Positions 12,104 to 63,886 of a DNA stretch of 64,000 bases are shown here, in pieces; position 1 is the first letter of the stretch; each line of letters starts with the position of its first letter. The notes under the pieces were generated by a model. It did no database searches. It was given only the letters and a program-made list of their open reading frames with translations, and was not told where the DNA came from. Source of the stretch: an uncultured Gammaproteobacteria bacterium (GTDB taxonomy: Bacteria; Patescibacteriota; Microgenomatia; UBA12405); NCBI GenBank assembly GCA_964503465.1, contig CAZCYZ010000001.1, positions 195,731 through 259,730 on the forward strand. Reading direction: 5' to 3'. The translations under genes were made by a program, and so were the position numbers.

Positions 12104-12712
12104 ATGATTACCGGATTTGTTGCCAAAAAACTTTCCATGACCAACGTCTATCAAGACAATGGCATTAGGATCTCCGCTACTCGCTGTTTTTGCCCCGATC
12201 TTACCGTTACCCAGATCAAACCGGCTTCTATTCAGATTGCCTATGGTATCAAGAAAAAACAAAACCAAGCAGTTGCTGGTTTCTTGAAAAAATCCAAACT
12301 AAAAATTACCCCCCAGCACTTTAAAGAATTTCAAAAAATTGCCAATCAACCCATTGCTGTTGGAGATCAAATCACTATTGATTCTGTTTTTCAGCCCGGC
12401 GAGACCGTTAATGTCACTGGTATCAGTAAAGGTCGTGGTTTTGCTGGTGTTATCAAGCGATACGGCTTCCATCGCCAACCAGTGTCTGGTGGCCAATCGG
12501 ATCGTGTCCGAGCTCCCGGTGCCATTGGCGCCCAAACTCCTGGTAAAGTCTTAAAGGGTAAAAAAATGCCGGGGCACTATGGGAATGCTACTGCCACTGT
12601 TACTGGTCTAAAAATTCTCTCTTTTGATCCAGTCAACCATCAGGTTCTCATTAATGGACCAATTCCAGGTCATTTTAATTCTTGGGTTATTATCAACAAA
12701 GTCAAAAATTAG
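12104..12712 (+). CDS. rplC: 50S ribosomal protein L3
   Basis: Conserved position after rpsJ; L3-like sequence FRAPGAIGAQTPGKV. Confidence 0.9.
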   Translation: MITGFVAKKLSMTNVYQDNGIRISATRCFCPDLTVTQIKPASIQIAYGIKKKQNQAVAGFLKKSKLKITPQHFKEFQKIANQPIAVGDQITIDSVFQPGETVNVTGISKGRGFAGVIKRYGFHRQPVSGGQSDRVRAPGAIGAQTPGKVLKGKKMPGHYGNATATVTGLKILSFDPVNHQVLINGPIPGHFNSWVIINKVKN

Positions 12713-12720
12713 TCACCAAA

Positions 12721-13368: not shown

Positions 13369-13369
13369 T

Positions 13370-13657
13370 ATGAAATTTATCCTCAAGCCTATCATTACCG
13401 AAAAAGCTCTAATTGACCAGGAAAAAGGCCGTTATCATTTTTCTGTTGATAAATCCGCTACTAAAAACCAAATTAAGTCAGCCTTTATCTCGATTTTTTC
13501 TCAAAATCCAGTTAAAATCAACATCCTTAACAAAAAAGGCAAAATTAAAACCGACTGGCGTCGTCGTCAAACAATAACCAAGGTCAGTTACAAAAAAGCC
13601 GTTATCACTCTTGCTAAGGGTCAAAAAATCGAATCCCTAACCCTTAAGAAAAAATAA
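13370..13657 (+). CDS. rplW: 50S ribosomal protein L23
   Basis: MKFILKPIITEKA... start at the ATG at 13370 inside ORF 13226..13657. Confidence 0.85.
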   Translation: MKFILKPIITEKALIDQEKGRYHFSVDKSATKNQIKSAFISIFSQNPVKINILNKKGKIKTDWRRRQTITKVSYKKAVITLAKGQKIESLTLKKK

Positions 13658-13661
13658 ATTT

Positions 13662-14396
13662 ATGAAACTTCTTACTATTAAAAAAACCACTAGCGGACGC
13701 GACTCTCAAGGCCACGTTTCCGTTCGACATCGTGGCGGCGAGCACAAGCGTTTTCTTCGCCGCATTGATTGGAAACGGCCGTTCACTGACGTCAAGGCTA
13801 AAGTTATTTCCATCGAATATGATCCCAACCGCACTGCCAAAGTTGCCCTTCTGGTCTACACCAATGGTTGTAAATCATACATTTTAGCCTCATCAAATCT
13901 CAAAGTTGGTGACATTATTACCTCGTCCCCAAAAACCCTAATCAAAGATGGTAACCGTCTTCCCCTCAAAAACATTCCCGTTGGTATTCCTATTCACTGT
14001 ATTGAATCCTATCCCGGTGCCGGAGCTAAATTAGTTAAAAGCGCTGGTTCGGCTGCTTATCTTCAAAGTGTCGAAGGTAACAAAGCCATCGTTAAGTTGC
14101 CTTCAGGAGAAATCAAAATCTTTCCTGCTACAGCTTCCGCCACTATTGGCCAACTCGGCAATGAACTTCATTCAAGCCGCAAATTACGCAAAGCTGGAGA
14201 TTCGCGCCACCGTGGTATTCGACCCAGTGTTCGCGGAGTTGCTCAACATCCCGACTCTCATCCTCATGGAGGCGGTGAAGGTCGTAGCTCTGTTGGCATG
14301 AATCCAAAAACTCCTTGGGGTCGACCAGCTATGGGTAAAAAAACCCGAAAGTTAAAAAAATCCAGTAACCGGTTAATTATTAAACGCCGCAAGTAA
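13662..14396 (+). CDS. rplB: 50S ribosomal protein L2
   Basis: GRDSQGHVSVRHRGGEHKR...PSVRGVAQHP...HPHGGGEG. Confidence 0.95.
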   Translation: MKLLTIKKTTSGRDSQGHVSVRHRGGEHKRFLRRIDWKRPFTDVKAKVISIEYDPNRTAKVALLVYTNGCKSYILASSNLKVGDIITSSPKTLIKDGNRLPLKNIPVGIPIHCIESYPGAGAKLVKSAGSAAYLQSVEGNKAIVKLPSGEIKIFPATASATIGQLGNELHSSRKLRKAGDSRHRGIRPSVRGVAQHPDSHPHGGGEGRSSVGMNPKTPWGRPAMGKKTRKLKKSSNRLIIKRRK

Positions 14397-14411
14397 TCCG
14401 CGCCAACCACT

Positions 14412-14684
14412 ATGAGAAGTTCAAAAAAAGGACCACATGTTGACCCCAAACTCCTAAAAAAGGTTACTACCTCTTCTGGTACTGATCCTATTACCACCTA
14501 TGCTCGTCATTCACAAATTCCCCCAGAATTCGTTGGTCGCACCTTCTTGGTTCACAATGGTCGCAAGTTTATTAGCGTTTATGTCACCGAGGACATGGTC
14601 AGTCATCGTTTAGGGGAATTTTCTCCCACTCGTACCTTCAAAGGTCATGGACGTGTCGTTAAAAGAGTTATCGAAAAAACCTAA
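14412..14684 (+). CDS. rpsS: 30S ribosomal protein S19
   Basis: [11 protein letters not shown]...[14 protein letters not shown]. Confidence 0.95.
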
Positions 14685-14690
14685 ACTCAT

Positions 14691-15125
14691 ATGACATCAA
14701 CTTCCTCTTCGTTTACTCAAGTCAGATTTCTCAACAAAAACGTCAAGATTTCCCCTCGAAAGCTTCGTCTCTGGGTTGCTGGTATCAAAAAACTTTCCCC
14801 CATCACTGCCCTAACCCGGTTAAGGCTTACCAACAACAAATCAGCTCGAATCCTTGTCAAAGCCCTGACCAATGTTTTGGCTGATGCCAAAAATAATTTC
14901 CACCTTGACCCAAACAGTCTTAAATTTTCTGAGATCCGAGTTGACGAAGGGCTAAAAATTAAACGTATGGACAAATCCCACGGTTCACGTTTTGCTCGCG
15001 GTTTAATTTACAAACGCCATAGCCGTCTGACTATCATTTTGTCCGGAACTTCTGCTACAATACCGGAGGTCAAAAAACCAGAAAAATCAACCAAAATAGT
15101 TAAAACACCAAAAATTAAAAAGTAA
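14691..15125 (+). CDS. rplV: 50S ribosomal protein L22
   Basis: ISPRKLRLWVAGIKK; conserved position. Confidence 0.9.
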   Translation: MTSTSSSFTQVRFLNKNVKISPRKLRLWVAGIKKLSPITALTRLRLTNNKSARILVKALTNVLADAKNNFHLDPNSLKFSEIRVDEGLKIKRMDKSHGSRFARGLIYKRHSRLTIILSGTSATIPEVKKPEKSTKIVKTPKIKK

Positions 15126-15130
15126 ATTAT

Positions 15131-15772
15131 ATGGGTCAAAAAGTTAATCCTCTAAGCTTTCGGCTTGAAACTTCTGCAACCGCTCCTCGGTGGCAGTCTT
15201 CTTGGTATGCCGGAACTGGTAAATACGCCAAATATCTTCTTGAGGACAAAAAAATCCGTGATTTTCTTGAAAAGAAATTATCCGCCGCCGGAATTGTTTC
15301 CATCAGAATTGAACGTTCTAATAAAAAAGTAAAAATTACTCTTGTCGTTAGTCGACCCGGATTGGTTATTGGACGAGGCGGCAAAGAACTAGAAATAATC
15401 AAACTTGGCGTTCAAAAACTTCTTCCCAAATCAGTCGGTAAACAAAGTCTTGAGATCCAAGTCGAAGAATTCCGCCATGTTGATTTGTCGGCCAAACTTA
15501 TCGCCGAAAAAATTGCCTACCAACTAACTAAACGTCTACCTTATCGTCGAGTTGTTCTTTCTTCCATGGAAAAAGCCATTGGTAGCGGGGCCAAAGGAAT
15601 TAAAGTTATTCTTGGAGGTCGTATCAATGGAGCTGAAATCAGCCGTCGCGAAAAGTTTTCCCAGGGAACAGTTCCTCTTAGCACTCTCCGTTCTCGAATT
15701 GATTATTTTGAATGTCCTTCACTAACTCGCTCCGGCTATATTGGTGTTAAAGTTTACCTTTGTTTAGATTAA
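15131..15772 (+). CDS. rpsC: 30S ribosomal protein S3
   Basis: MGQKVNPLSFRL...KH domain; conserved position. Confidence 0.95.
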   Translation: MGQKVNPLSFRLETSATAPRWQSSWYAGTGKYAKYLLEDKKIRDFLEKKLSAAGIVSIRIERSNKKVKITLVVSRPGLVIGRGGKELEIIKLGVQKLLPKSVGKQSLEIQVEEFRHVDLSAKLIAEKIAYQLTKRLPYRRVVLSSMEKAIGSGAKGIKVILGGRINGAEISRREKFSQGTVPLSTLRSRIDYFECPSLTRSGYIGVKVYLCLD

Positions 15773-15773
15773 T

Positions 15774-16178
15774 ATGCTTCAGCCTAGTCGCACCAAATAT
15801 AGAAAACAGTTTCGGGGTCGAATGCGTGGCCAATCCGCCGGTAATCTAGTTGCTTTTGGTGAATATGGCCTTAAGTCTCTTTCTTGCGGTTGGATCTCAA
15901 GCAATCAGATTGAAGCTGCCCGTAAAAGTATTTCTCATGCTACCAAAAGAAATGGCCGTCTTTGGATCCGTGTCTTTCCCGATAAACCTATTACTCAAAA
16001 AGGTGCCGGGGCCCCACTTGGAGCTGGTAAAGGTGATGTTAAAGGCTACGTTGCCGTCATTCGACCTGGTCGAGTTATGTTTGAAGTTTCCGGAATTTCC
16101 GATACTGAAGCTCACCGTGCCCTTAATCTTGCTGCCGCCAAGTTATCAGTTTCAACTAAAGTAATCAAACGACTTTAG
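15774..16178 (+). CDS. rplP: 50S ribosomal protein L16
   Basis: MLQPSRTKYRKQFRGRMRG. Confidence 0.95.
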   Translation: MLQPSRTKYRKQFRGRMRGQSAGNLVAFGEYGLKSLSCGWISSNQIEAARKSISHATKRNGRLWIRVFPDKPITQKGAGAPLGAGKGDVKGYVAVIRPGRVMFEVSGISDTEAHRALNLAAAKLSVSTKVIKRL

Positions 16179-16188
16179 TCAAAATTCT

Positions 16189-16392
16189 ATGAAGAAATCT
16201 GATAAAATCTCCTACCACCAAAAAGATATTGCTAGTCTTACCAAATTAATATCTGACCTAAACCAAAAACTGGTCGAAAGTAAAGCCAAACAGCAACTCG
16301 GTGGTCTCAAGGATACTTCGGTTTTTAAGAAAATTAAATACGAGATTGCTCTGGTTCAGAGCCTAATTTCATCCAAACATGACTCCAAATAA
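16189..16392 (+). CDS. rpmC: 50S ribosomal protein L29
   Basis: 67 aa, coiled-coil L29-like; conserved position. Confidence 0.85.
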   Translation: MKKSDKISYHQKDIASLTKLISDLNQKLVESKAKQQLGGLKDTSVFKKIKYEIALVQSLISSKHDSK

Positions 16393-16678
16393 TCCCAAAA
16401 CAGGCTTGCCTCGACGTAGTCCAAATACTTTGGAGACGAAGGCGGGTAAAACCTTTACCGGTCAAGTAGTTTCAAGCAAAATGGCCAACACCATTGTCGT
16501 TTCCATGGACTATCAACGTCGCCATCCTCTCTACAAAAAAATTATTCGTAAATCCAAAAAAATCTATGCCGACAACAACCTTTCCGCTACAGTGGGGGAT
16601 ATTGTCAAAGTTCGCGAAACTCGACCATTAAGTAAACTTAAGCGTTTTACTACCATCGAAATTATTCAAAAGAATTAA
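16379..16678 (+). CDS. rpsQ: 30S ribosomal protein S17
   Basis: TFTGQVVSSKMANTIVV...IVKVRETRPLSK. Confidence 0.9.
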   Translation: MTPNNPKTGLPRRSPNTLETKAGKTFTGQVVSSKMANTIVVSMDYQRRHPLYKKIIRKSKKIYADNNLSATVGDIVKVRETRPLSKLKRFTTIEIIQKN

Positions 16679-16683
16679 TATCC

Positions 16684-17052
16684 ATGATCCAACTTCGTTC
16701 AATTATTAAACCAGCCGATAACTGTGGAGCCAAACAACTCCAGGTGGTCCACGTTTATGGTGGATTTCGCCACAAAAAAACCTCAATTGGAGGTATCGTT
16801 TTGGCGGTAGTTAGGGATGCCATTCCTAACGGTCTTCTGCACAAAAAAGAAAAAGTCAAAATGGTCATTGTTCGTACCAAAAAAGAGATTAATCGTCCCG
16901 ATGGTTCTTATATTCGTTTTAGCGACAATGCCGGAGTAGTTATCGACAGTCAAAAAAATCCGCGAGGTACCCGTATATTTGGGCCTATTGCCCGTGAAAT
17001 CAAGGATGCTGGCTTTGTTAAAATTGCCTCTATGGCCAAGGAAGTTTATTAA
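16684..17052 (+). CDS. rplN: 50S ribosomal protein L14
   Basis: MIQLRSIIKPADNCGAKQL. Confidence 0.95.
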   Translation: MIQLRSIIKPADNCGAKQLQVVHVYGGFRHKKTSIGGIVLAVVRDAIPNGLLHKKEKVKMVIVRTKKEINRPDGSYIRFSDNAGVVIDSQKNPRGTRIFGPIAREIKDAGFVKIASMAKEVY

Positions 17053-17057
17053 ACTCT

Positions 17058-17384
17058 ATGAAGATTATTAAAGGCGATACTGTCAAAATCATTTCCGGTA
17101 AAGACAAAGGTCGGCAAGGTCAGGTCGTGGCTACTTCCCCCAAAATCCTCAAAGTTACTGTCAAAGGTCTTAATTTGTTTCGCAAACATATCAAATCACA
17201 AAAAGGTCAAAAAGGTGGCATCATCGAGAAGGAACGGCCACTTAATATTGCCAAAGTAGCCCTTATTTGTCCTAACTGTCAGAAAATTACCCGCGTCGGT
17301 TATCAGATTGACAAATCAGGTAGCAAGTATCGTCTTTGTCGTCGTTGTCATCAAATTATTCAATCTGCCCCCAAGGCCAAATAA
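17058..17384 (+). CDS. rplX: 50S ribosomal protein L24
   Basis: MKIIKGDTVKIISGKDKGRQGQVV, KOW motif. Confidence 0.9.
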   Translation: MKIIKGDTVKIISGKDKGRQGQVVATSPKILKVTVKGLNLFRKHIKSQKGQKGGIIEKERPLNIAKVALICPNCQKITRVGYQIDKSGSKYRLCRRCHQIIQSAPKAK

Positions 17385-52113: not shown

Positions 52114-53934
52114 ATGGAAAGGACAGTAATTTCTGACACTATTTCTGGGATTGGTCAGGAAGTTCGGATCAAAGGTTGGGTGGTTTCAGTTCGAAGTCAC
52201 GGTCAAATAGTCTTTGCCGACATTCGTGATCGTAGTGGTCTTCTTCAAATTGTTGGCGACAAATCATTAAACGAACTTCGTCAAGAATATGCTGTCGAGA
52301 TTGTCGGTCTGGTTCGTCCTCGTGATCCCAAATATTTCAACCCCAAACTTGTTACTGGTCAAATTGAGCTTGAAGTCAAAAGTCTGACGGTTCTGGCCAA
52401 ATCACGCGATCTCCCTTTTGATATTCACCAACCAGACCTCAATGTTTCTCTCCCCACTCTTCTTGATCATCGTTCGGCTTCCCTTCGTAATCTTAAAATC
52501 CAGGATGTATTTACTGTCCAATCAACCATTGTTAATGCCTTCAGAAATTTTTTACAAAGCCAAAACTTCAAGGAAATTTTTGTCCCTACCATTGTTGCTG
52601 GCTCTACTGAGGGAGGATCAGAAGTTTTTCCCGTCGATTATTTTGGCTACCAGGCTTTTTTGGCTCAAAGTCCTCAACTCTACAAACAAGTTCTTACTTC
52701 AGTCTTCGAAAGAGTGTTTACTATCGCTCACGCCTATCGGGCCGAACCTAGCGTCACCACTCGTCATTTGACCGAATACGTTGGGCTCGACGTTGAAATG
52801 GGATTTATTGATAGTTGGCTTGATGTCCTTGGGGTTGCCGATGCCACTGTCAAAGCCATTTTTGAATTGGTTGGTCAACTCCATCAGGACATTCTTGACA
52901 AGTATCAAGCCACTCTCCCCAAAACTATTGCCAACACCCCCCGAATCAAACTAAAAGATGCCCTGGAGTTAATTTACAAACGCACTGGCCGTGACGTTCG
53001 TCAGGAATTAGACATGGACCCAGAAGGTGAACGGGAGATTTGCCGCTGGTCCTTGGAGGAATTTGGTAGTGATCTTGTTTTCATTACCCATTTTTACACC
53101 AAAAAACGTGCCTGGTATTCATTCGCTGATCCCGAAAACCCCAACGAAACCCTTACTTTCGATCTCATTGGTCGAGGAGTCGAGTGGATCAGTGGTGGCC
53201 AACGGATTCATGACTATGACGAATTTAGACAAAAACTAATTTCTCGTGATCAGAATCCTGATGATTTTGAATCACCTTATGGCCAAACCTTTAAATACGG
53301 TATGCCGCCTGAAGGTGGTTTCTGCATTGGTTTGGAGCGAGTCACTCAAAATATTCTTGGCTTAGAAAATATTCGCCAAGCTTCATTGTTCCCCCGCGAC
53401 ATGGAACGTGTCGATGGTCGTTTATCGGTTATTGGTAAAAGAAAAACTCTTACTACCAAAACCGATCTTCACCAAAAACTGTTAAGTTTCCTCAACGAAA
53501 AATTAATAAAATACCAACACTTGGAGCATGAGGAAGTCAAAACATCAGAGGCGGCCGCTGCTGCCCGTGGTACCAGGCTCGAACAGGGAGCCAAGGCATT
53601 GATTATGTACGCCGACAGCCAACCAATATTGGTTGTTCTTTCGGCCGCTAGTAAGCTCGATAGTGATGAGTTCAAAAAACAATTTGGTGTCAAAGATCTT
53701 CGTATGGCTACCCCCGATGAAGTCGAGACGGTCTCCACTGTTCCCATCGGCGCTGTCCCTCCTTTTGGTAACCTCATTAACTTGGTTACTTACGTTGACG
53801 AGGGTTTGTTGGTCAACAAAGAAATCGCTTTCAATGCTGGTTCACGTCGGCATTCAGTTATAATCAAATCTAGTGATTTCGTCAATGCCGTCCGTCCGAA
53901 AAAAGGCCGCTTCTGTCAAGCCACCAAAGACTAA
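52114..53934 (+). CDS. aspS: Class IIb aspartyl/asparaginyl-tRNA synthetase (archaeal-type core) fused to a C-terminal YbaK/ProX-like aminoacyl-tRNA deacylase domain
   Basis: OB-fold anticodon-binding N-terminus; LAQSPQLYKQ and motif-2 YRAEPS...; the C-terminal roughly 170 aa align to YbaK (KALIMY/LAVAV, GAVPPFG ~ GGISPLG, IAFNAGSRRHSVII ~ IYVSGGKRGLDIEL). Confidence 0.75.
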   Translation: MERTVISDTISGIGQEVRIKGWVVSVRSHGQIVFADIRDRSGLLQIVGDKSLNELRQEYAVEIVGLVRPRDPKYFNPKLVTGQIELEVKSLTVLAKSRDLPFDIHQPDLNVSLPTLLDHRSASLRNLKIQDVFTVQSTIVNAFRNFLQSQNFKEIFVPTIVAGSTEGGSEVFPVDYFGYQAFLAQSPQLYKQVLTSVFERVFTIAHAYRAEPSVTTRHLTEYVGLDVEMGFIDSWLDVLGVADATVKAIFELVGQLHQDILDKYQATLPKTIANTPRIKLKDALELIYKRTGRDVRQELDMDPEGEREICRWSLEEFGSDLVFITHFYTKKRAWYSFADPENPNETLTFDLIGRGVEWISGGQRIHDYDEFRQKLISRDQNPDDFESPYGQTFKYGMPPEGGFCIGLERVTQNILGLENIRQASLFPRDMERVDGRLSVIGKRKTLTTKTDLHQKLLSFLNEKLIKYQHLEHEEVKTSEAAAAARGTRLEQGAKALIMYADSQPILVVLSAASKLDSDEFKKQFGVKDLRMATPDEVETVSTVPIGAVPPFGNLINLVTYVDEGLLVNKEIAFNAGSRRHSVIIKSSDFVNAVRPKKGRFCQATKD

Positions 53935-54929: not shown

Positions 54930-55973
54930 TTACTTCACCCACTTATCTACCACTGCTGGTATATAAGCCACAAAGTTATTGTCACCCTCAAACACAAAAA
55001 TCGGTTGCATGTAATTTGTCAGTGTCACTGGTTCAAAATAAGCCAGATACATTTTTCTGATGGCTACCTTAGCTGACTTATTATCCACTGCTGGCCAATA
55101 ATTGCCCAATTTCAAATCATTCCACGCCTCTTCAGCTGTTTTAATCGGATACGTTTCATACGATTCCCGATCAATGTTGGTGTGTTTATAACTCACTTCC
55201 ACCACCTTTTTTCCTACTACCGTTGATCCGGTTAACAACAATGACACCGAAGCTCTTCCATACTCTGATGATAAAATCTTTGTCTCTTTTTCCAGCGCCT
55301 TCCTAAAAAAATCAACCCTAACAATATTGGCTTCAGCTTGGGAATTTACTGGTACCAAGCCACTATCTTCAATTTTCCAAAAACTAACCTTTTTCTCCCC
55401 TCCCGCCAGATCATCCGACAGTTTTCCTCCCTGGTCAAGGTAAAGTTTGGCTTGCTCAATGGCCTTGTCTTTGGTCGGTACCATCCCACTACTGGATAAT
55501 GTCTGATCAGTTAAGTATGGATAACTAATTTTAAAACTACCATCCAAAACATTAATCACCAAACTTTGATTTAACTGATCATTCCTAAATTCATAAATAC
55601 CATTATTTTGATCTTTCTCTATTGGTTTGGTTATAAATTGAAAGTTTTGAGCTGTCTTTGTTTCTTCCTCCAGGGCCAAAAAAGTGTTTAGTGGTCTATA
55701 AACAACATATACTTTCGCTTGATCCGCAAACTTGGGTAAACTATCGTTAGGAAGTTCCAACACAAACTCTTTCTTCTCTGCCTTTTTTTCTGGAAATACA
55801 ATTTTTGGCAACACTCCATAACGGGTTGTTGGTGGTGTATATGGTGGGTGGGCTGCTCGGTAGGCTTTCACTCCCGCCACCAAACCTGTCCACAGTATTA
55901 CAAAAATCACCAAACCACTGCCGCCGTACTTAATTAAATTCCTCGATAAATAAGCTGTCTGCGTCAGCGACAT
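54930..55973 (-). CDS. Hypothetical secreted/membrane-anchored protein (347 aa)
   Basis: N-terminal TM anchor (LVIFVILWTGLVAG), large extracytoplasmic domain; no confident family. Confidence 0.45.
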   Translation of the reverse strand: MSLTQTAYLSRNLIKYGGSGLVIFVILWTGLVAGVKAYRAAHPPYTPPTTRYGVLPKIVFPEKKAEKKEFVLELPNDSLPKFADQAKVYVVYRPLNTFLALEEETKTAQNFQFITKPIEKDQNNGIYEFRNDQLNQSLVINVLDGSFKISYPYLTDQTLSSSGMVPTKDKAIEQAKLYLDQGGKLSDDLAGGEKKVSFWKIEDSGLVPVNSQAEANIVRVDFFRKALEKETKILSSEYGRASVSLLLTGSTVVGKKVVEVSYKHTNIDRESYETYPIKTAEEAWNDLKLGNYWPAVDNKSAKVAIRKMYLAYFEPVTLTNYMQPIFVFEGDNNFVAYIPAVVDKWVK

Positions 55974-56003: not shown

Positions 56004-57407
56004 TTGCCTATGTCTTCTCCCGCTCGTACCCGCATTGCCCCTAGTCCTACCGGCGAAATGCACATTGGCACACTTCGCACTGCCCTTTACTGTTATGCCC
56101 TGGCTCGTCAAACCGGTGGTCAGTTTATTCTTCGCATCGAGGATACCGACCAAAAACGTTATGTTCCTGGATCTGATGATCGTCTTATTCAATCCCTTAA
56201 CATTTGTGGTCTCAATATCGATGAGGGACCATTTTTTCAAACTCAACGCCTCGATATTTATCAACAATATTGTCAACAACTAGTCGATGCTGGTCATGCC
56301 TATTATTGTTTTTGTAGCGAGGAACGTTTAACTCAAATGCGCCAAACTCAAAAAGCCAATCACCAAACTCCTCGTTATGATCGTCATTGTTTGGCTCTGA
56401 CTTCAAACGAAGTTCAAGCCAAAATTTCTGCTGGTGAAAAATATGTTGTTAGAATGAAGATTCCCGACAACGAAACTATTGTTCATCATGATTTGGTTCG
56501 TGGAGAAGTACGTTTTAATACCCACGATCTCGATGATCAGATATTAATGAAATCAAACGGTATCCCTACTTACCATTTGGCTGTTGTGGTTGATGATCAC
56601 CTCATGAACATCACTCATGTCTTTCGTGCTGAAGAGTGGTTGCCATCTACTCCAAAACAAATTTTACTCCATCGTTATTTTGGTTGGGATATGCCACCAT
56701 ATGCCCACCTTTCGGTTTTTCTTGACCCCTCTCATCCTGGCAAAATGAGTAAACGTTATGGTTCAGTTTCTGTTCAGGGGTTTTTAGCCGAAGGGTATCT
56801 TCCCCAAGCATTGCTCAACTTTGTTATGTTGCTCGGTTGGAATCCCGGCACCGATCAAGAAATTATTTCTCTAGAGGAATTCATTAGGCTGTTCAAACTC
56901 GAACAGCTTAACAAAAAACCAGCTATTTTTGATCGCCAGAAACTTGATTATTTTAATGGTTACTATATTCGTCAATTACCCCCAAACGAGCTATTTACAT
57001 ATTTTAAGAAATTTTTACCTCAAGCCACCGATGATCAGGTAAATGCTCTCATTCCCATTCTTCATGATCGCATTGTTAAATTTTCTGATCTCCCGGTTCA
57101 AACAAAATTCCTCTTTGAAGATTTTGATTACCCCACCGATTTGTTGTTCCAACGTGGTGCCGATAGGGGATTAGTTGTTGATGTTTTAACCAAAACCAAG
57201 AACTTATTTACCGATTTCTCCAATCTTCAGAACCGGCTTATGGAATTAATTAAAGAAAATAATTGGAACGTCGGCCAATTTTTTATGATTCTTCGTGTAG
57301 CTATTTGTGGAGTCACTCAAACTCCGCCCCTGGTTGATTGTCTTCCAATTTTGGGTCAAGCCAAAACTATTCATAAATTAGAACTGGCTCTTGCTAAACT
57401 GAAATAA
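56004..57407 (+). CDS. gltX: Glutamyl-tRNA synthetase
   Basis: PSPTGEMHIGTLRTAL HIGH-type motif; KMSKRYG KMSKS motif. Confidence 0.9.
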   Translation: MPMSSPARTRIAPSPTGEMHIGTLRTALYCYALARQTGGQFILRIEDTDQKRYVPGSDDRLIQSLNICGLNIDEGPFFQTQRLDIYQQYCQQLVDAGHAYYCFCSEERLTQMRQTQKANHQTPRYDRHCLALTSNEVQAKISAGEKYVVRMKIPDNETIVHHDLVRGEVRFNTHDLDDQILMKSNGIPTYHLAVVVDDHLMNITHVFRAEEWLPSTPKQILLHRYFGWDMPPYAHLSVFLDPSHPGKMSKRYGSVSVQGFLAEGYLPQALLNFVMLLGWNPGTDQEIISLEEFIRLFKLEQLNKKPAIFDRQKLDYFNGYYIRQLPPNELFTYFKKFLPQATDDQVNALIPILHDRIVKFSDLPVQTKFLFEDFDYPTDLLFQRGADRGLVVDVLTKTKNLFTDFSNLQNRLMELIKENNWNVGQFFMILRVAICGVTQTPPLVDCLPILGQAKTIHKLELALAKLK

Positions 57408-58258
57408 TGTTAGTGGTTGTTGTCTTGTTTTTGATTTTTACCCAGCCCTCTTTTGCCGTCGACCCGATTGTTAAGATAACCAATTTCTCATCCAATTCTT
57501 CTCCTGAATGGGTCGAAGTTTACAACCAAACCGATACCATTATTGATCTTACCGGTTGGGCTATTGGTGATAGTAATACTCAAGTTCTTTACGATTTACC
57601 ATTGACTGGTTGTTTATCCCCCAATACTTATCAAACTTTTTTCCACGACAGCGGATGGCTCAACGATGACGGCGATACTATTTATCTTTATAATTCCCAA
57701 CCAACACTCATCGATTCTTTTATTTACACCGACGGTAAATACGACCCAAATTATAGATCTACCAATACCTGTACTCCTACTCCGCCAGTTCCGACTTCTT
57801 CTCCGACTCCAATTCCGACTGTTATCCCCACAAATACTCCATTACCCCTACCAACTATCACTCCATCTCCTACCAATATTCCTACGATTATTAATACCCC
57901 AGCAGTCACCAATACTCCTGGGCCTACTAATACCCCCACCGCTACCAAAACTCCCGCCCCTACCAATATTCCCACCGCTACCAAAACCCTCACTCCCACC
58001 AAGAAACCCACCCTTACCCCCAGTGTTACCGAAGAGAAAATTATTGAAACCATTGTCGATGAGTCTTTTCAAACTCCTACCCCCGCCCCAGTTCTTGGTA
58101 TTTCCGACATCATTACCCCATCCCCCACCATTAATCCGCCTCGTCAGCCTGCTGACATTTCCAAGTTTATCCCCACTATCTTTATTACTGTTGGCGGGCT
58201 CCTCCTCCTGTCACCCCTTGCCATCACTGCCTTGTCCAAAATTCGACAAAAATATTAA
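57407..58258 (+). CDS. Secreted lamin-tail-domain (LTD) protein with Pro/Thr-rich repeat linker and C-terminal TM anchor
   Basis: Signal peptide ...PSFA/VDP; LTD motif SPEWVEVYNQTDTIIDLTGWAIGD; PT-rich tandem repeats (TNTPTATKTPAPTNIPTATKT); start overlaps the gltX stop (TAATG). Confidence 0.7.
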   Translation: MLVVVVLFLIFTQPSFAVDPIVKITNFSSNSSPEWVEVYNQTDTIIDLTGWAIGDSNTQVLYDLPLTGCLSPNTYQTFFHDSGWLNDDGDTIYLYNSQPTLIDSFIYTDGKYDPNYRSTNTCTPTPPVPTSSPTPIPTVIPTNTPLPLPTITPSPTNIPTIINTPAVTNTPGPTNTPTATKTPAPTNIPTATKTLTPTKKPTLTPSVTEEKIIETIVDESFQTPTPAPVLGISDIITPSPTINPPRQPADISKFIPTIFITVGGLLLLSPLAITALSKIRQKY

Positions 58259-58499
58259 GTTATAGGAATTCAATAATTGTCTCTTACGGTTATAATGCAG
58301 AAAATATAAGACCATTGTCTATTGACACGACATAAGTAGTTGATATAGCATGAGATGCCAATGGTATTCAGACTAAAAAATAATAAATTGGAATGAACTC
58401 TAAATCCCTCACTTTGTGGGGGATTTTTTGTTCCCCATTGGTTATTATTAATTAACATTTATTAATCCAAAAAGGAGGTGAAAACTTACAAATAAAACC

Positions 58500-59546
58500 A
58501 TGAAAAAAATCTTATTAAGTCTTTTAATTGTTGCAGGGGTAGCTGGATCTATTGCCCTTGGTACTAGTGCTTATTTCACCGACGAAGAACAAGCGCTGGG
58601 TAATACCTTTACTACCGGCACTATTGACATCGCCGTTGATGGTACTAATCCATGGACAAGAACCGCTCCTTACACTTTCGAGGATATGAAACCCAGTCAG
58701 GTTGAGTATTCCAACTTTGAAATCGAAAACGTTGGCACCAATCCTGCTAATGTGTGGAAAAAAGTTGATGTTGTCTCCACCGCAGATGGGTTAATATCAG
58801 AGCCAGAATGTGTTGAGGGTAACGGAACCTGGGATAATGCCACTAAAACATGTGGAGGTAGTTATGTTGCCAAAAACGACATTGATACCGCCATTACTTA
58901 TGATCTTTCAGTTGAACTTTATGACGCCGCAGGTGTCAAACAATGGAATCAAGTGCTTTACGACATGGACAAAACCATTGCCCAAATCAATGGCCAATCT
59001 GTGTCTTTGGGTATGATTCCTGCTGGTTGGTCTATGAAGGTTACTGAAAGCTATCACATGCTTTCCGAAACCACCAACTGGGCTCAGGGCGATGTTATGA
59101 ATTTCAACATCACTCTTAGCGCTGAACAGCTCAAGGGTGTCGCCACTCTAGAAGATAAAAGTGCTGATTGGCAAGTACAAGGTGACACTACACCTAAAGG
59201 TACTCTGACATATGGAGTTAAAGACTCCACTTTTACCTATACCTTTACTGGCGTAGCACCATTAGCAAGTACTAACTACTCGCTAATAGCCTATTACGAA
59301 CCATTCTCAAGCCCATCTGCTTCAGGATGGCCGAGAACTGTTGAGATTTTAGGGACAACCGTCTCTGATGGTAGCGGTAATGTTTCCATTCCCTCTACTC
59401 CATTGACCTTGACCCATGATCTTCTTAACATGAAGGTCTGGTTAGTCCCAAGTTCGAATTTGACTGGTAGCACTATGAGTGGGTTCACTCAAAGCGCCAT
59501 TTTGTTCGATACTGGTCTTCTTGACTATTACCGATCCGGTATCTAG
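58500..59546 (+). CDS. TasA/camelysin-family (Peptidase_M73-like) secreted protein with SipW-cognate signal peptide
   Basis: N-terminus ...GTSAYFTDEEQALGNTFTTGTIDIA aligns to the TasA/CalY signal-proximal motif (AFNDIKSKDATFASGTLDLS); strong RBS aaaggaggtg. Confidence 0.75.
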   Translation: MKKILLSLLIVAGVAGSIALGTSAYFTDEEQALGNTFTTGTIDIAVDGTNPWTRTAPYTFEDMKPSQVEYSNFEIENVGTNPANVWKKVDVVSTADGLISEPECVEGNGTWDNATKTCGGSYVAKNDIDTAITYDLSVELYDAAGVKQWNQVLYDMDKTIAQINGQSVSLGMIPAGWSMKVTESYHMLSETTNWAQGDVMNFNITLSAEQLKGVATLEDKSADWQVQGDTTPKGTLTYGVKDSTFTYTFTGVAPLASTNYSLIAYYEPFSSPSASGWPRTVEILGTTVSDGSGNVSIPSTPLTLTHDLLNMKVWLVPSSNLTGSTMSGFTQSAILFDTGLLDYYRSGI

Positions 59547-59631
59547 TCAATAATCTTTCTGCGTCAGAGTGGGAGTAGTTACTTCCACTCTGACAGGACA
59601 GAGGTGTGAAATATATACAATCAATCTACTA

Positions 59632-60183
59632 ATGTTTAAAAAAGTAACTAGCATCATATATATCCTGACCATTACGTTGGTGGTAGTTATCGCTATTGCT
59701 ACAATACTTACTGTTACAAAAGCTCCCGGAGGAATTCGTCTCTTTGTTGTCCAATCTGGATCAATGGAGCCAACGATAAAAACTGGATCAGTCGTCATAA
59801 TTTCCCCCCGCGACAACTATCAGAAAGACGATATTATTACCTATTTTGCCGATCCGTCTAAAACTAATCTTCGAACACCTAATTCAACTGTCACCCATCG
59901 AATTGTAGATATTAAAACAGAAAAGGAATCCACTCTCTTTCAAACTCGAGGTGACTCCAACAATTCCCCCGACAAAGATCCCGTGTCTCCTAAATCTGTT
60001 CTCGGTAAAGTCGTTTTAAGTATTCCATATGTCGGACGAATTATCGCTTTCACCAAAACCCAAGTTGGTTTTTTATCATTAATTGTCATTCCTGGGACAA
60101 TTATTATCTATAGTGAACTTATCAATATCAAAAGTGAAGTTAAGCGTTTACTGACGTCTAAAAGTAAAAAACCTCCCAAATGA
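59632..60183 (+). CDS. sipW: Signal peptidase I, archaeal/ER type (SipW-like, S26B)
   Basis: FVVQSGSMEPTIKTGSVVII (Ser box), VTHRIV (His box), FQTRGDSNNSPD and LGKVVLSIPYVGR align closely to B. subtilis SipW; start at the ATG at 59632 inside ORF 59569..60183. Confidence 0.8.
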   Translation: MFKKVTSIIYILTITLVVVIAIATILTVTKAPGGIRLFVVQSGSMEPTIKTGSVVIISPRDNYQKDDIITYFADPSKTNLRTPNSTVTHRIVDIKTEKESTLFQTRGDSNNSPDKDPVSPKSVLGKVVLSIPYVGRIIAFTKTQVGFLSLIVIPGTIIIYSELINIKSEVKRLLTSKSKKPPK

Positions 60184-62660
60184 AACGTCTAATATTAAAA
60201 TTTTGTGTGCTAACCACCCTCCTGGTATTAACATATCTTCCATATAGTGGCTCCACCCTCACCGATGAAGAATCATTTGTTAACAACTCAATAACTGCGG
60301 GTTGTTGGTCAGCGCCATCGGTCCCGGTTTTACTAAGTCCAGGAAACAATACTTACGCTGGTAGTGGTTCTCCCTGGGATCTCGATCCTCGTATGGATTG
60401 GGACGACTCATCAATTTACTGTGATGCCCCCAACACTCTCCGCTATCAATATGAGTCTTATTCTGATGCCGCTTTAACCCACCTGCTATATCAATCTGCC
60501 TGGTTAACCGATTCTCAAATCCCTGCTCCTGGCACTCCCGACGGTGTCTATTATTGGCGAGTCCGGGCCAAAGATGGTCAAGAAAATATAAGTGAATTTA
60601 GCTTACCCTGGAAATTTACCGTCGACCGTGTCAATCCCGCTACCCCCTCATTATCTGTCACCGGTTCCTACACCAAAGCCGTCGAAGAACGCCTTACTAA
60701 TGGTAATTTTGAAACTGGTGACATTTCCGGCTGGACTACCGCCGGTAACGTCACCGTTTTAAACAGCGACACTGTCACTGATCCCGCCCTTACCATTAAT
60801 CCAGCCAACGGCAACTATATGGTTCGTTTAGGTGATTCAGCCGACCCTGGTAACTTTGTTTGGGAAAATCGTTTGATGCAGTCTTTTGCTACTGGAGCCA
60901 AAAGTATTTCCCTTCGTTACAATTACTTTAGCCGTGATTATGGGCCTTTTGATGATCCAGGCTTTTTCATTCGACTCGGTGGCCAAGAAGTTTTTCGTCT
61001 CGCTACTAGTGCCGTTAATTCGGGTGGTATCGGCGATGCCCAAGCTCGTTCTACCGATTGGCAGGAATTTTATTACGATCTAAGTTCCCAAAATAACAGT
61101 CAAACAAATCTAGCTATTTATGCCGGTAATACTGGTGACAAAAGCTATCAGTCTTGGGCTTATGTCGACCAATTTACTACCTACTTTGTTTCCGCCCCTC
61201 TCCACGCTAGTTATTCGCTCTCGGGAAATGATAATCCTTCCGGCTCCGGTCTCAATCGTTTTGAATACAACCTTGATAGTACCTCTTGGACTCCGATAGC
61301 TATCGGTGTCACTTTTACTATTTCCTCCGGTGGTGAACATAATCTTCAATACCGCTCCATCGATAATGCCAACAATCACAGTGATATTTCTACCGTTCGT
61401 CTTATAGTTGACGCCACTCCTCCAAATGATATTACCGATCTTGCTTCTACTTCAATTAGTGCCAATCAAGCCACCCTGACTTGGACTGCCCCCGGCAACG
61501 ATGGCTCATCTGGTAAATCCTCAACTTACGATCTCCGTTATTCAACCTCACCTATCACCACTGCTAATTTTGATTCGGCCACAAAAATTGATCATTTACC
61601 CTCACCTCAAACTTCTGGTGCCAGTGAAACTTTTGAGGTTACTGGTCTTAATCCTAGCACTACCTACTATTTTGCTATTAAATCAGCCGACGAAGCCCCC
61701 AACTGGTCAGATGTCAGCAATGTCATTACTCTGACCACCACCGCTGGCCTAACTCTCAACCGCGGCGATATTGTTATCAACGAAATTCTTTGGATTGGTG
61801 GTACCAACCCCGAGCAAATAATTGAAGTCCGCAACACTACCGATCGTCTTTTTACTGATCTTTCAACTCTCTCTCTAAAACTGGGTGGAACCGAAGTTGT
61901 TAACTTTGCTGGTACCACCCTCCCTCCTCATGGTTATCTTTTGATTTCAACTCTTAACAATTCCGATACTAATATTGGCAACACCGCCAGTACTATTGAT
62001 ATTCCCAATGCCGTCCTTGATCTTCCGCGAACTGTTTTGGATTTGGCTCTGGAGAACAACTCTACTCAAATTGATCTTGCCTGGACTACTCTTGAGCCGG
62101 TCACCGAAGGGGTTTTCGATACTACCTCCGGGGCAGAAAAATATTATTCCATGGAACGTCTCTCAACTCCTGGGGAAGGGGACGATCCTCTTAATTGGTA
62201 CACCTGTATCGATGCCGCTTCTGGCCCTGATTTCTTCAAAGTTGTTGTCGGTGTTGACTTCCGCGGTACTCCTAAAGCCGATAATCGTTCTGAGAATGAA
62301 CCTCTAGCTCATCTTCGCCCTGCAAGTCGCCAACCAACCACCACCCCAACTCCGCGTCTTGAACCAAGTATCGCCCTAACCCCAGTTGACAAGGACAACA
62401 AAATCACCCTCAATATTAGCGACTTATTTACCTCGGTTGAATATGAAATCAAATATACCAATTCTGCTGGCGAACAAGGTTTTGGCGGCAAACTTGATAT
62501 CACTGATATAGTTAATGGTCAGATTAGCCGTCAATTTTATCTTGGCACTTGTTCCTCAGGTGGTATCTGTATCCCCGACGCTGATATCGGTTCAACCGCC
62601 AACGTTACTCTTACCTCCGAAACTGTTAATCTTAGTAAAACCTTTACCATTAAGCCATGA
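60180..62660 (+). CDS. Large secreted cell-surface protein (826 aa) with SipW-cognate-like N-terminal motif, a fibronectin type III domain and a C-terminal LTD-like domain
   Basis: N-terminus ...SGSTLTDEESFVNNSITAG resembles the TasA-class signal motif; FN3 (LTWTAPGNDGSSGKSSTYDLRY...YYFAIKSAD); LTD-like GDIVINEILWIGGTNPEQIIEVRNTTD. Confidence 0.65.
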   Translation: MKRLILKFCVLTTLLVLTYLPYSGSTLTDEESFVNNSITAGCWSAPSVPVLLSPGNNTYAGSGSPWDLDPRMDWDDSSIYCDAPNTLRYQYESYSDAALTHLLYQSAWLTDSQIPAPGTPDGVYYWRVRAKDGQENISEFSLPWKFTVDRVNPATPSLSVTGSYTKAVEERLTNGNFETGDISGWTTAGNVTVLNSDTVTDPALTINPANGNYMVRLGDSADPGNFVWENRLMQSFATGAKSISLRYNYFSRDYGPFDDPGFFIRLGGQEVFRLATSAVNSGGIGDAQARSTDWQEFYYDLSSQNNSQTNLAIYAGNTGDKSYQSWAYVDQFTTYFVSAPLHASYSLSGNDNPSGSGLNRFEYNLDSTSWTPIAIGVTFTISSGGEHNLQYRSIDNANNHSDISTVRLIVDATPPNDITDLASTSISANQATLTWTAPGNDGSSGKSSTYDLRYSTSPITTANFDSATKIDHLPSPQTSGASETFEVTGLNPSTTYYFAIKSADEAPNWSDVSNVITLTTTAGLTLNRGDIVINEILWIGGTNPEQIIEVRNTTDRLFTDLSTLSLKLGGTEVVNFAGTTLPPHGYLLISTLNNSDTNIGNTASTIDIPNAVLDLPRTVLDLALENNSTQIDLAWTTLEPVTEGVFDTTSGAEKYYSMERLSTPGEGDDPLNWYTCIDAASGPDFFKVVVGVDFRGTPKADNRSENEPLAHLRPASRQPTTTPTPRLEPSIALTPVDKDNKITLNISDLFTSVEYEIKYTNSAGEQGFGGKLDITDIVNGQISRQFYLGTCSSGGICIPDADIGSTANVTLTSETVNLSKTFTIKP

Positions 62661-63886
62661 TTCGTAAAATATTTACCTCATTAATAGCCTTCTCTTTTAT
62701 ATCCTGTCTTCTTCCCACTTCAACTTTTGCTACCAATGCCGTTATTACCTGTGAGCTGTCAGGTTGTACCAAAGACACTGGCACCAACCCTTTGTTTTAT
62801 GAAGAAAATATTTTACCTGGCTTTTCAGTTACTCGGCAAGTCACTGTTACCAACAACCGGCCCGACGACTGTAATTTATATTACAAAGCTTATAATCCCC
62901 GTTTCGATATTTTAGCCGACAAGATTTTTATTACTCGTGACACCACTACTAAAACTTTAAACCAATTTACTGATTCAGCTAATTATTTTCTTGGCACTCT
63001 TACTCCTGGTCAATCCCAAGTTTATTCCTGGAAAGCAGTTTTTGACCCTACTGCTGGCAACGAGTATCAAAACAAGAAAAGTATTTTTGATTTTGATTTT
63101 ATTTTTGAATGCAATGAATCTTATCTAACTCCTACTCCCACCTCTACATCCACCACTACCAGTACTGGTGGTGGGGGTGGTAATGCCAACAATCCTCCAG
63201 TCTGTAACGATTCTTATCCCCAAGCTCCGACAGGGTTTTATGCCCGCCGCAACGTTGGTGGTGCCAGTGTTACTTTGTTTTGGAATCAAAGTACTTCTCC
63301 GCATACTCACTACTTAATCGCCTATGGTGTTCGCCCTGGTGAATATATTTACGGTAATCCCAATGTTGGTGATGTTGACAACTACACTGTTCGTAGTCTC
63401 GTACCAGGAGCTCAATATTGTTTCTATGTTCGTACCATCAATGGTTGTATGCCAGGGGACAAGACAATTGAAGACTGTGTTAACGTCGGCGGACCGGAAA
63501 TTATTCCTGCTACACCTCCTGAAGGTTTTCAGCCCGGTGTTTTAGGAACTCAAGAAACTACTCCCATCGTTTCTGAAACCGGTGAAGTTGGTGGCGTTAC
63601 TACCTCTGCTTGTCAGCGTTACTGGTTACCAATCCTTTATTTTATTGCCCTTATCATCAATTTACTTTATCTTCACCGTCAGGCTAATCTTAAACCCGAC
63701 AATCGCTCCATCTGGCGTTATCTTTTGCCACCGGTACTTTCACTTTTCCTTTACTGGGTCGATCTTTATATTCTTCGCCAGCGTTGTTGTCTTATTGTTA
63801 ATACCTATTGTCGTTATTTCTGGATTGGGAATATCCTTTCGGCCCTCGTTCCAGTCTGGTTCTATAACAAAATCAAGGAAAAGTAG
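62657..63886 (+). CDS. Secreted surface protein with TasA-like N-domain, Thr/Gly-rich linker, FN3 domain and C-terminal TM anchor
   Basis: Signal peptide; FYEENILPGFSVTRQVTVTNN resembles the TasA core start (LKPGDKLTKDFQFENNGS); FN3 (SVTLFWNQST...YCFYVRTING); C-terminal hydrophobic helices. Confidence 0.55.
   Translation: MIRKIFTSLIAFSFISCLLPTSTFATNAVITCELSGCTKDTGTNPLFYEENILPGFSVTRQVTVTNNRPDDCNLYYKAYNPRFDILADKIFITRDTTTKTLNQFTDSANYFLGTLTPGQSQVYSWKAVFDPTAGNEYQNKKSIFDFDFIFECNESYLTPTPTSTSTTTSTGGGGGNANNPPVCNDSYPQAPTGFYARRNVGGASVTLFWNQSTSPHTHYLIAYGVRPGEYIYGNPNVGDVDNYTVRSLVPGAQYCFYVRTINGCMPGDKTIEDCVNVGGPEIIPATPPEGFQPGVLGTQETTPIVSETGEVGGVTTSACQRYWLPILYFIALIINLLYLHRQANLKPDNRSIWRYLLPPVLSLFLYWVDLYILRQRCCLIVNTYCRYFWIGNILSALVPVWFYNKIKEK

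Follow-up and report, generated by a model that had tools for sequence, protein, structure and literature searches.

Four adjacent genes of an ultra-small (CPR/Patescibacteria-type) bacterium, named g1 to g4 in what follows, probably make up an operon for a TasA-type surface fibre, in which g3 would be the tip or nucleator, g1 the shaft and g4 the membrane base. The cassette looks like a known kind of fibre, that of TasA, in an unstudied form. It lies in a window of 64,000 nucleotides, the whole stretch of DNA that was analysed. An earlier note on this DNA had described TasA-like and SipW genes in one cassette, with at least two SipW-cognate substrates and another secreted protein of TasA-like character, probably forming a surface fibre, and profile searches and gene linkage support this core claim. 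Polymerisation, adhesion and an episymbiotic lifestyle are inferences.

Much of bacterial diversity falls within the CPR/Patescibacteria, whose cells seem to spend their lives attached to others. Type IV pili aside, hardly anything seems to be known of their attachment structures.

A 2022 paper had pointed out that Patescibacteria have TasA homologues (PMC9245690). Beyond that remark on distribution, the literature covered here (non-exhaustive) has no description of the cassette in CPR.

Locus layout

The features of the locus are as follows.
57407..58258, + strand: g0, LTD/PT-repeat surface protein with a C-terminal transmembrane segment, coupled to gltX (LTD 49 bits)
58402..58426, + strand: terminator-like hairpin between the gltX-LTD gene pair and g1, an 11-bp stem followed by a T run (consensus scan)
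58500..59546, + strand: g1, 348-aa TasA-family protein, proposed major fibre subunit
58500..58571, + strand: g1 signal peptide, residues 1-24 (TIGR04088 30.5 bits, residues 9-42; predicted SipW cleavage after A24)
58572..58637, + strand: g1 donor-strand-like segment, the mature N-terminus, residues 25-46, YFTDEEQALGNTFTTGTIDIAV (alignment with the TasA donor strand and linker)
59632..60183, + strand: g2, 183-aa SipW-type (archaeal/ER-type, S26B) signal peptidase I (TIGR02228 112 bits)
60180..62660, + strand: g3, 826-aa second SipW substrate, proposed TapA-like tip or nucleator adhesin
60180..60308, + strand: g3 signal peptide (residues 1-25) and donor-strand-like segment (residues 26-41, TLTDEESFVNNSITAG) (family profiles)
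62657..63886, + strand: g4, 409-aa protein, proposed membrane-anchored acceptor-only base subunit

An ORF check of the window places g1 to g4 at the coordinates given by the earlier note, and public collections call the same four products. The g3 start overlaps the g2 stop by 4 nt (60180-60183), and g3 and g4 overlap at 62657-62660. The hairpin at 58402-58426, a consensus match only (scan plus sequence reading), suggests that g1 begins a separate transcription unit.

The PT-rich g0 had been described as an LTD/PT protein coupled to gltX, and this is correct: its LTD domain (PF00932) scores 49 bits against a gathering threshold of 34.3, and the last base of the gltX stop codon is also part of the g0 start. 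Its signal is of the ordinary type, with no SipW-type motif detected by TIGR04088 or the local signal profile. As a conserved member of the cassette it does not hold up: in the closest relative, L078, gltX and the cassette have no g0 between them, a terminator-like hairpin lies between g0 and g1 here, and none of 77 loci has a g0 homologue upstream of the cassette. We reject g0 as a member of the system and treat it as a neighbour only.

The signal peptidase

The product of g2 is predicted to be a dedicated Ser/His/Asp (S26B) signal peptidase, with one N-terminal and one C-terminal membrane helix. The archaeal-type model TIGR02228 scores 112.1 bits (cut-off 51.85), while the bacterial-type TIGR02227 reaches only 25.7 bits (cut-off 47), in agreement with the proposed archaeal/ER type; the SGSMEP, HR and GDxN..D boxes of SipW are present. 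The Bacillus SipW equivalog model NF046067 gives 123.4 bits, below its cut-off of 190, and g2 is therefore SipW-like and no orthologue by NCBI's criterion. Conservation across 53 homologues is 1.00 for S44, 1.00 for H89, 0.98 for D108 and 1.00 for D114, and no conserved Lys is found among them. We take S44, H89 and the Asp residues to be catalytic, as is established for SipW/SPC18-type enzymes.

The TasA-family protein

By profile and fold, g1 is a TasA-fold protein with a signal peptide of the predicted SipW-dependent type. The signal model TIGR04088 scores 30.5 bits (33.9 on the isolated N-terminus; cut-off 19) and PF12389 (Peptidase_M73) 34 bits (cut-off 22.5) over residues 14-80 only, which bears out the assignment to the TasA/camelysin family with a SipW-cognate signal; nearly all g1 homologues listed carry a precomputed PF12389 match. 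A single-sequence search of the PDB returned nothing relevant, and because a profile search gave only a weak match to TasA (E 1.2e-3), a fold comparison was needed. The model has a jelly-roll like that of the TasA fibre subunit at residues ~44-215, followed by an extra Cu/Zn-SOD-like beta-barrel domain (~220-348) with a conserved C-terminal tail.

A cleavage site after the AYFTD-like motif had been named as a point to check. The cut is predicted after A24 (GTSA|YFTD), a residue invariant across 48 homologues, and puts Phe at P2' as in TasA; the position is taken from alignment with the TasA site A27|A28-F29, as given in PMC10269814. The TasA donor strand is residues 28-38, the 11 residues directly after the SipW cut, with contacts F29/I32/F39 (PMC9674648). 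Residues 25-46 of g1, which would correspond to it, form the most conserved stretch of the family, with D28, N35 and G40 invariant, and have low to medium pLDDT (50-72) in the monomer model. This donor-strand assignment, like that in g3, relies on alignment with TasA at 14-18% identity.

Database names would make g1 a camelysin-type metalloprotease (PF12389, 'Camelysin metallo-endopeptidase') or the precursor of a ribosomally synthesised peptide (JGI, 'predicted ribosomally synthesized peptide with SipW-like signal peptide'). The names are all that favours this highly improbable reading, which we reject: there is no HExxH or other metal-site motif in g1, g3 or g4, the g1 fold is the TasA-like jelly-roll, a folded two-domain protein of 348 aa is no RiPP precursor, and the invariant residues are concentrated in the sandwich core and the strand at the N-terminus.

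Another reading, which we consider unlikely, is that SipW matures g1 and g3 as non-polymerising monomeric surface or S-layer-associated proteins, and that g4 is unrelated and shares a beta-sandwich fold. Polymerisation is putative for all of these proteins, monomeric TasA is stable and soluble in vitro (PMC9674648), and the extra C-terminal domain of g1 is absent from TasA. However, the ~20 residues past the cut, the best conserved of g1, are far more than a signal peptidase would require and fall where TasA has its donor strand, and all structurally characterised relatives matched by the g1 model are donor-strand filament subunits. Both points argue against the monomeric reading.

The large proposed second substrate

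The predicted signal of g3 is of the same type as that of g1. The N-terminal string STLTDEESFVNNSITAG is present as the earlier note stated, with a predicted cut at SGS|TLTD (after S25). Residues L27, F33/V34 and I38 are at positions corresponding to the TasA contacts F29/I32/F39, the D-to-N and D-to-G spacings equal those of g1 (both read from the sequences), and a family-invariant C42-W43 follows the donor-strand-like segment.

The claim that this N-terminus repeats the SipW-cognate motif stands at the level of the family and fails with the curated model. TIGR04088 gives no match to g3 at E<=10, for the full length or the isolated 62-residue N-terminus, and matches only one of 34 full-length homologues; local signal profiles were built because it is inadequate for the g3 family. 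The g1-family signal profile is marginal on g3 itself (E 0.75 within the ORF, 0.011 on the isolated N-terminus) and matches 22 of 34 g3-family N-termini at E<1e-3. With a profile of positional orthologues, g3 is the second-best ORF of the window (E 0.047), and none of 3000 shuffles reaches its score. An HMM of the g3-family segment preceding the CW, prepared with the window left out, finds g3 at 7.6e-8, g1 at 3.8e-4 and nothing else among 676 ORFs. The g1 and g3 signal profiles thus recognise each other reciprocally.

The g3 family comprises 274 matches, of which 61 share the N-domain, keep the N-terminal motif and have the invariant CW after it; 19 of the 61 are fused to SipW. A SipW domain is present in 25 of the 120 g3-family matches listed. 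Where SipW and g3 are fused in frame (L007, L035, L040, L066 and L079, and also among the g3 homologues), both h-region and motif are preserved at the junction. The putative SipW-type motif of g3 is validated by this family-level and fusion evidence only. Two SipW-cognate substrates are recognised in the cassette, g1 by TIGR04088 and g3 by family profiles, where at least two had been proposed; HMM scans of the window find no third signal of the SipW type.

P0152 and P0153, the closest relatives of g3, retain the cut-site part of the motif but have a degenerate strand-like part (SSLSSG, ATVGSG), so peptidase recognition rather than strand donation may be the conserved function in this clade. 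This counts towards the reading in which g1 and g3 are monomeric surface proteins.

After the signal and strand segment, g3 contains Ig/FN3-like, CBM-like jelly-roll (weak), OmpL47-type barrel (residues 346-410), FN3 (419-516), LTD (528-~700) and C-terminal domains. FN3 (PF00041, 34.1 bits, cut-off 25) and the barrel (45.7 bits, cut-off 40) are above threshold. The description as an 826-aa FN3/LTD protein is right for FN3; LTD scores 22.3 bits in the window copy, below the cut-off of 34.3, and most homologues carry a precomputed PF00932 match. A Pfam scan of sub-segments of g1, g3 and g4 gave sub-threshold matches only (CBM_4_9, E 0.015; Ig_Rha78A_N; Phage_VG64), which were used solely for the label 'CBM-like (weak)'. 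Thus g3 is not the large, domain-decorated fibre subunit that had been envisaged, since it has no TasA fold, just a signal and donor-strand-like segment and then other domains. No TapA-related family is among its Pfam and NCBIfam matches at E<=0.1. Its resemblance to TapA would be in functional logic, not by homology, and strand donation is putative.

The membrane-anchored TasA-like protein

In g4, a TasA-like domain is combined with a predicted C-terminal membrane anchor. The protein consists of a signal (cut after A25), a TasA-like beta-sandwich (26-154), a linker, FN3 (190-275; PF00041 32.4 bits, cut-off 25), a conserved GFQPGVLG motif and three Cys-rich transmembrane helices (327-408). The expected secreted FN3 protein with a TasA-like stretch proves to have a real TasA-like domain: the g4 family aligns with the g1 family (hhalign 96.5%, E 9.8e-10), g4 46-154 on g1 59-206. 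The assignment depends on hhalign and not on Foldseek, since a Foldseek search with the whole model gave FN3 matches only and does not address the N-domain. This N-domain is found in 569 representatives.

The signal of g4 is of the ordinary A-x-A type (family consensus ...FA|GND...), and neither TIGR04088, on full length and N-terminal fragments, nor any local signal profile finds a SipW-type motif in it. A donor-strand segment is lacking: only a few residues of the mature protein precede its first strand, and on the g1 side the hhalign match sets in at residue 59.

The AF2 model of g4 (pLDDT 79) places the helices at 327-344, 357-375 and 382-408, and they make g4 a candidate for the anchor. 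These three C-terminal helices were absent from the earlier note. A sortase/exosortase-type sorting signal was considered for the C-terminus and rejected, given the three conserved helices and a weak XrtV-accessory match (E 0.007) as the sole related one.

Conservation of the cassette

The order TasA-like protein, SipW, LTD protein and anchored TasA-like protein recurs across Patescibacteria, and in L078, too, the four genes stand in this order. Of 77 loci, 63 have SipW no more than 5 kb from the TasA-like gene; among the remaining 14, 12 are cut off, so that SipW is missing in just 2 of 65 evaluable loci, a co-occurrence that favours the cassette as proposed. Of 37 loci, 34 have a signal-profile match in the ORF directly after SipW (31 at E<0.01), and g4-like genes with C-terminal transmembrane segments are last in the cassette in about 35 loci. 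This constant set across phyla (a protein with both donor and acceptor, a donor-rich partner and an anchored acceptor) is hard to explain if the products are monomeric surface proteins.

Two to four TasA-like paralogues accompany SipW in many relatives from the CPR and Dehalococcoidia. The protein after SipW contains a TasA-like domain in many other CPR loci, and a tip that only donates a strand is thus not general.

Proposed fibre assembly

The fibre that we favour would be built as follows. SipW would cut g1 after A24 and g3 after S25, each time exposing an N-terminus that would correspond to the donor strand of TasA. The TapA N-terminus resembles the TasA donor strand and nucleates fibres (PMC10151520). 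Having a donor strand and no TasA acceptor domain, g3 would, like TapA, donate its strand into the first g1 and so nucleate polymerisation; it would end up as the distal tip, an adhesin presenting CBM-like, FN3 and LTD domains. Further g1 subunits would chain head-to-tail via donor-strand exchange until the free donor strand of the last g1 inserts into the acceptor sandwich of g4. Because g4 has an acceptor sandwich without a donor segment and three helices in the membrane, it would cap and anchor the fibre. With SipW and g3 frequently fused, the nucleator would be released where the subunits are processed, at one site of the membrane. In the CPR cell the fibre would probably serve for attachment to a host or surface. 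The polarity of tip and base is purely deduced; g4 could self-complement and never join the fibre, and the SOD-like domain of g1, without a TasA counterpart, might hinder TasA-like packing.

A released matrix fibre or bundling pilus like those of Bacillus, shed or forming cell-cell bundles, with g3 as a sub-stoichiometric nucleator near the cell surface and g4 non-anchoring, seems to us quite improbable. Characterised relatives do behave in this way, TasA as a matrix scaffold (PMC9674648) and AbpA in bundling pili (PMC9245690), and TapA is thought to be outside the filament beyond initiation (PMC10151520). But TapA needs only residues 44-57, whereas g3 has ~780 residues of binding-type domains (CBM-like, FN3, LTD), and the membrane-anchored TasA-like last gene is conserved with no counterpart in the Bacillus operon.

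Comparison with known systems

As in B. subtilis tapA-sipW-tasA, a dedicated archaeal/ER-type signal peptidase is encoded beside its substrates, although the order here is tasA-like, sipW, partner, anchor. TasA and g1 have in common the jelly-roll, a post-cleavage N-terminus that is the donor strand (in g1 by alignment) and Phe at P2'; g1 differs in its additional SOD-like C-terminal domain and shares only 14-18% identity. TapA and g3 are both second substrates whose N-terminus mimics the donor strand without a TasA fold, but the 826-aa g3, with its CBM-like, OmpL47-barrel, FN3 and LTD domains, is non-homologous and often peptidase-fused in relatives. [quoted passage not shown]

In B. cereus sipW-tasA-calY (camelysin), SipW is likewise near TasA-family substrates. 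That system has two paralogue substrates and no LTD/FN3 adhesin or membrane-anchored member, whereas here a single full TasA-family subunit is accompanied by two divergent partners. The AbpA/AbpB pili of Pyrobaculum calidifontis and other archaeal TasA homologues are also built of TasA-superfamily subunits by N-terminal donor-strand complementation with no chaperone or usher, and a larger multi-beta-domain partner, AbpB, proposed as assembly initiator and adhesin, is encoded alongside.

Chaperone-usher (type 1/P) pili would offer a parallel as functional analogy only: the tip adhesin comes first, then a strand-exchange shaft and a terminating or anchoring last subunit (a PapH-like role). Homology is absent, and the present system, in a monoderm cell, has neither periplasmic chaperone nor usher and would use an integral membrane protein as its anchor. 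Tentatively, the cassette might encode a complete chaperone- and usher-free donor-strand-exchange pilus for host attachment, with g3 as donor-only tip, the SipW fusion as nucleation site, g1 as two-domain shaft and g4 as three-helix terminator; if so, it would be a third Gram-positive-type pilus class beside sortase pili and type IV pili.

Implications

If the proposed fibre is real, a conserved TasA-type cassette with tip, shaft and membrane base would be a concrete and testable candidate for another CPR surface fibre besides type IV pili. The TasA/AbpA donor-strand principle would then gain an integral-membrane terminator and a signal peptidase-nucleator fusion, both undescribed for Bacillus or archaea. 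For annotation, TIGR04088 misses a whole family of likely SipW substrates (the g3 type), and fused SipW-adhesin proteins are now annotated as 'signal peptidase I' only.

The cassette and its limits

All ORFs proposed in the earlier note were found, on the + strand and with the coordinates claimed.

Features of the locus (window positions)
56004-57407, +, ORF of gltX
57407-58258, +, ORF of g0, an LTD/PT-repeat protein
58402-58426, terminator-like hairpin between g0 and g1
58500-59546, +, ORF of g1, TasA-family protein, 348 aa
59632-60183, +, ORF of g2, SipW-type signal peptidase, 183 aa
60180-62660, +, ORF of g3, FN3/LTD surface protein, 826 aa
62657-63886, +, ORF of g4, FN3 protein with TasA-like domain and membrane helices, 409 aa

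Four-base overlaps at g2/g3 and g3/g4 indicate that g2, g3 and g4 are probably translationally coupled; g1 and g2 are 85 nt apart. Exactly these four products, g1 to g4, are called in public collections, without names, on a contig of 470 kb.

Scanning one genome per species for the pattern gave 77 loci, mostly from Patescibacteria, with some from Dehalococcoidia and a few from archaea. In 63 of these, SipW is encoded no more than 5 kb away; since 12 of the other 14 loci are truncated, just 2 of the 65 loci that can be evaluated are without it. A four-gene order recurs: TasA-like, SipW, LTD protein and anchored TasA-like protein. In the closest relative (L078), gltX is followed by a small ORF on the minus strand, then by these four genes, and last by a CAP-domain gene unrelated to them. 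From this layout and the recurrent order, the cassette is g1 to g4, and g0 is a neighbour.

A Shapirobacteria locus (L079, GCA_028704885.1) encodes at 9322-17209, directly 3′ of its g4-like gene, a 3112-aa protein with VWA and SpaA-type pilin domains, which could mean that another adhesin or pilus system is linked to the cassette or lies beside it. CPR-type TasA/SipW contigs at eight loci (L009, L012, L024, L031, L035, L037, L040, L049) come from bins labelled Gammaproteobacteria, Pseudomonadales or Bdellovibrionales, probably through mis-binning or mislabelling in public records.

The TasA-family protein and its signal peptidase

By curated tests g1 belongs to the TasA family and g2 to S26B, as the earlier note had read them. 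For g1, Pfam TasA/Peptidase_M73 scored 34 bits (threshold 22.5) and TIGR04088, the model of the SipW-dependent signal, 30.5 bits (cut-off 19). Its family is tight (268 matches, proteins of ~350 aa), and its relatives, where named, are 'TasA family protein' at NCBI (bins labelled Levybacteria and Pacebacteria) or SipW-signal proteins at JGI. Conservation over 48 aligned members is highest at the N-terminus, where A24, D28, N35 and G40 are invariant; the C-terminal tail, LFDTGLIDYYDSDL, is conserved too.

Against TIGR02228, which models archaeal-type signal peptidase I, g2 scored 112 bits (cut-off 51.85), and it fell below the threshold of the bacterial-type model. S44, H89 and D114 do not vary among 53 homologues taken from related loci, D108 is kept in 98% of them, and there is no conserved Lys; g2 has one N-terminal and one C-terminal hydrophobic helix. 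Profile scores and conserved residues thus point to a SipW-like S26B enzyme which is not a strict SipW orthologue by the NCBI criterion (123 bits to the Bacillus SipW equivalog, under the 190 cut-off).

A probable second SipW-type substrate

The SipW-type motif claimed for g3 is present as a string, but its N-terminus, even isolated, received no TIGR04088 score, and by this alone that part of the claim would have failed on the earlier note's own terms. The g1-family signal profile was marginal (E 0.75 within the ORF, 0.011 isolated). Three independent lines, position, family and fusion, rescue the motif as a SipW-type signal.

Position. Of 37 related loci, 34 have an ORF directly 3′ of SipW that matches the signal profile (31 at E<0.01). 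When the 676 ORFs of the window were ranked by a profile of the positional orthologues, g3 came second, with the match correctly placed, and none of 3000 shuffles scored as high.

Family. The N-terminal domain of g3, which has 274 homologues, is common to 61 of them. Family N-termini have a hydrophobic segment, then [S/A] and, across the putative cut, [Y/F][F/L]xDxExSxGNxFxA, followed by an invariant Cys-Trp. Of 34 such N-termini, 22 match the g1-family signal profile (E<1e-3); conversely, when a profile was built from the stretch that precedes the CW in the g3 family, leaving the window sequence out, its only matches in the window were g3 (7.6e-8) and g1 (3.8e-4).

Fusion. SipW and a g3-like protein form one in-frame polypeptide in five loci, and in proteins such as P0166, P0172, P0185, P0203 and P0205.

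SipW-g3-like fusions with the cleavage motif kept at the junction
L007, 11110-13053
L035, 2926-4683
L040, 11059-12858
L066, 854-2116
L079, 6283-8001

The fusion occurs in 19 of the 61 homologues having the N-domain, and a SipW domain is on 25 of 120 g3 matches listed; NCBI names these fusions just 'signal peptidase I'. Peptidase and C-terminal helix are followed by a basic linker, a hydrophobic segment, the cut-site motif and the remainder. Fusion of SipW to its own g3-like substrate, with the junction motif kept, implies self-release of the adhesin-like part.

Behind its motif g3 has no TasA domain; there follow Ig/FN3-like, CBM-like jelly-roll (weak), OmpL47-type barrel, FN3, LTD and C-terminal domains. 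Named relatives of g3 and g4 are from Shapirobacteria, Roizmanbacteria and Gottesmanbacteria, which makes this CPR group the probable origin of the window.

The anchored TasA-like protein

The signal peptide of g4 is ordinary (A25 nearly invariant), and no SipW-type motif is present. The 'TasA-like stretch' noticed earlier proved to be a true TasA-like domain without a donor-strand segment: residues 46-154 align profile-to-profile with the g1 jelly-roll at 59-206 (96.5% probability, E 1e-9). In the structural model (pLDDT 79) a disordered linker joins the sandwich to FN3, and a further linker leads to three C-terminal helices that carry conserved cysteines. Across 569 representatives (50% clustering) the TasA-like domain is N-terminal in every case, and in related loci the cassette ends with the g4-like gene, whose product nearly always has at least one terminal membrane helix. 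Residues ~290-409 (window 63530-63886) comprise a conserved GFQPGVLG motif and a membrane domain of three helices whose conserved cysteines (C319, C377, C378, C385) include a CC pair; the sole family match was a weak XrtV-accessory one (E 0.007).

P0147, a relative of the FN3/C-terminal part, combines a sortase domain (PF04203) with FN3. In four other g4 relatives (P0124, P0125, P0139, P0143) a lamin-tail domain is inserted between the TasA-like N-domain and FN3; LTD thus moves between g3-like and g4-like proteins.

Proposed assembly

The donor strand of B. subtilis TasA, residues 28-38, follows the SipW cut directly, and its main contacts are F29, I32 and F39 (PMC9674648); one stretch is therefore both 'SipW-cognate motif' and donor strand. 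The TapA N-terminus resembles this strand, and TapA donates it, nucleating fibres (PMC10151520; PMC9674648). With cleavage at the corresponding positions, g1 would have donor strand and acceptor sandwich and g3 a donor-like strand only (L27, F33/V34 and I38 at hydrophobic positions); g4, anchored in the membrane, would contribute just an acceptor sandwich. The simplest assembly by strand exchange fitting this anatomy would be g3 -> (g1)n -> g4, a polarity in which g3 may be the tip or nucleator adhesin, g1 the shaft and g4 the membrane base of an attachment fibre. SipW-g3 fusion would place nucleator release where subunits are processed. Against this assembly, the closest relatives of g3 have a motif whose strand-like part is degenerate, and the post-SipW protein has a TasA domain in many other loci. 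The interpretation of the earlier note is supported overall, with corrections: g3 has no TasA fold and its motif goes unrecognised by TIGR04088, g4 has an ordinary signal and ends in membrane helices, and g0 lies outside the cassette.

The system may be likened in its working to tapA-sipW-tasA, and it resembles AbpA/AbpB; g3 is not homologous to TapA. TasA relatives in Patescibacteria are already known, at distribution level (PMC9245690), as are the NCBI-named g1 relatives; the literature searched yielded no description of the conserved four-gene cassette, a two-domain shaft subunit, SipW-substrate fusions or a membrane-anchored TasA-like protein.

Other features of the window

A class II aspartyl-tRNA synthetase (52114-53934, +; PF00152 and OB anticodon domain) has, unusually for AspRS, a C-terminal aminoacyl-tRNA editing domain of YbaK/ProX type fused to it (PF04073, residues 472-590, 92 bits). 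The ORF at 54930-55973 (-) encodes a protein of 347 aa that has a membrane helix at its N-terminus and matches no Pfam family; it is one of few long minus-strand ORFs in a window whose long ORFs lie almost all on the + strand. In 31 of 32 2-kb bins (1-64000) the GC skew is negative, and cumulative skew falls almost monotonically, which together with ORF strand is consistent with a position inside one replichore with strong gene-strand bias.
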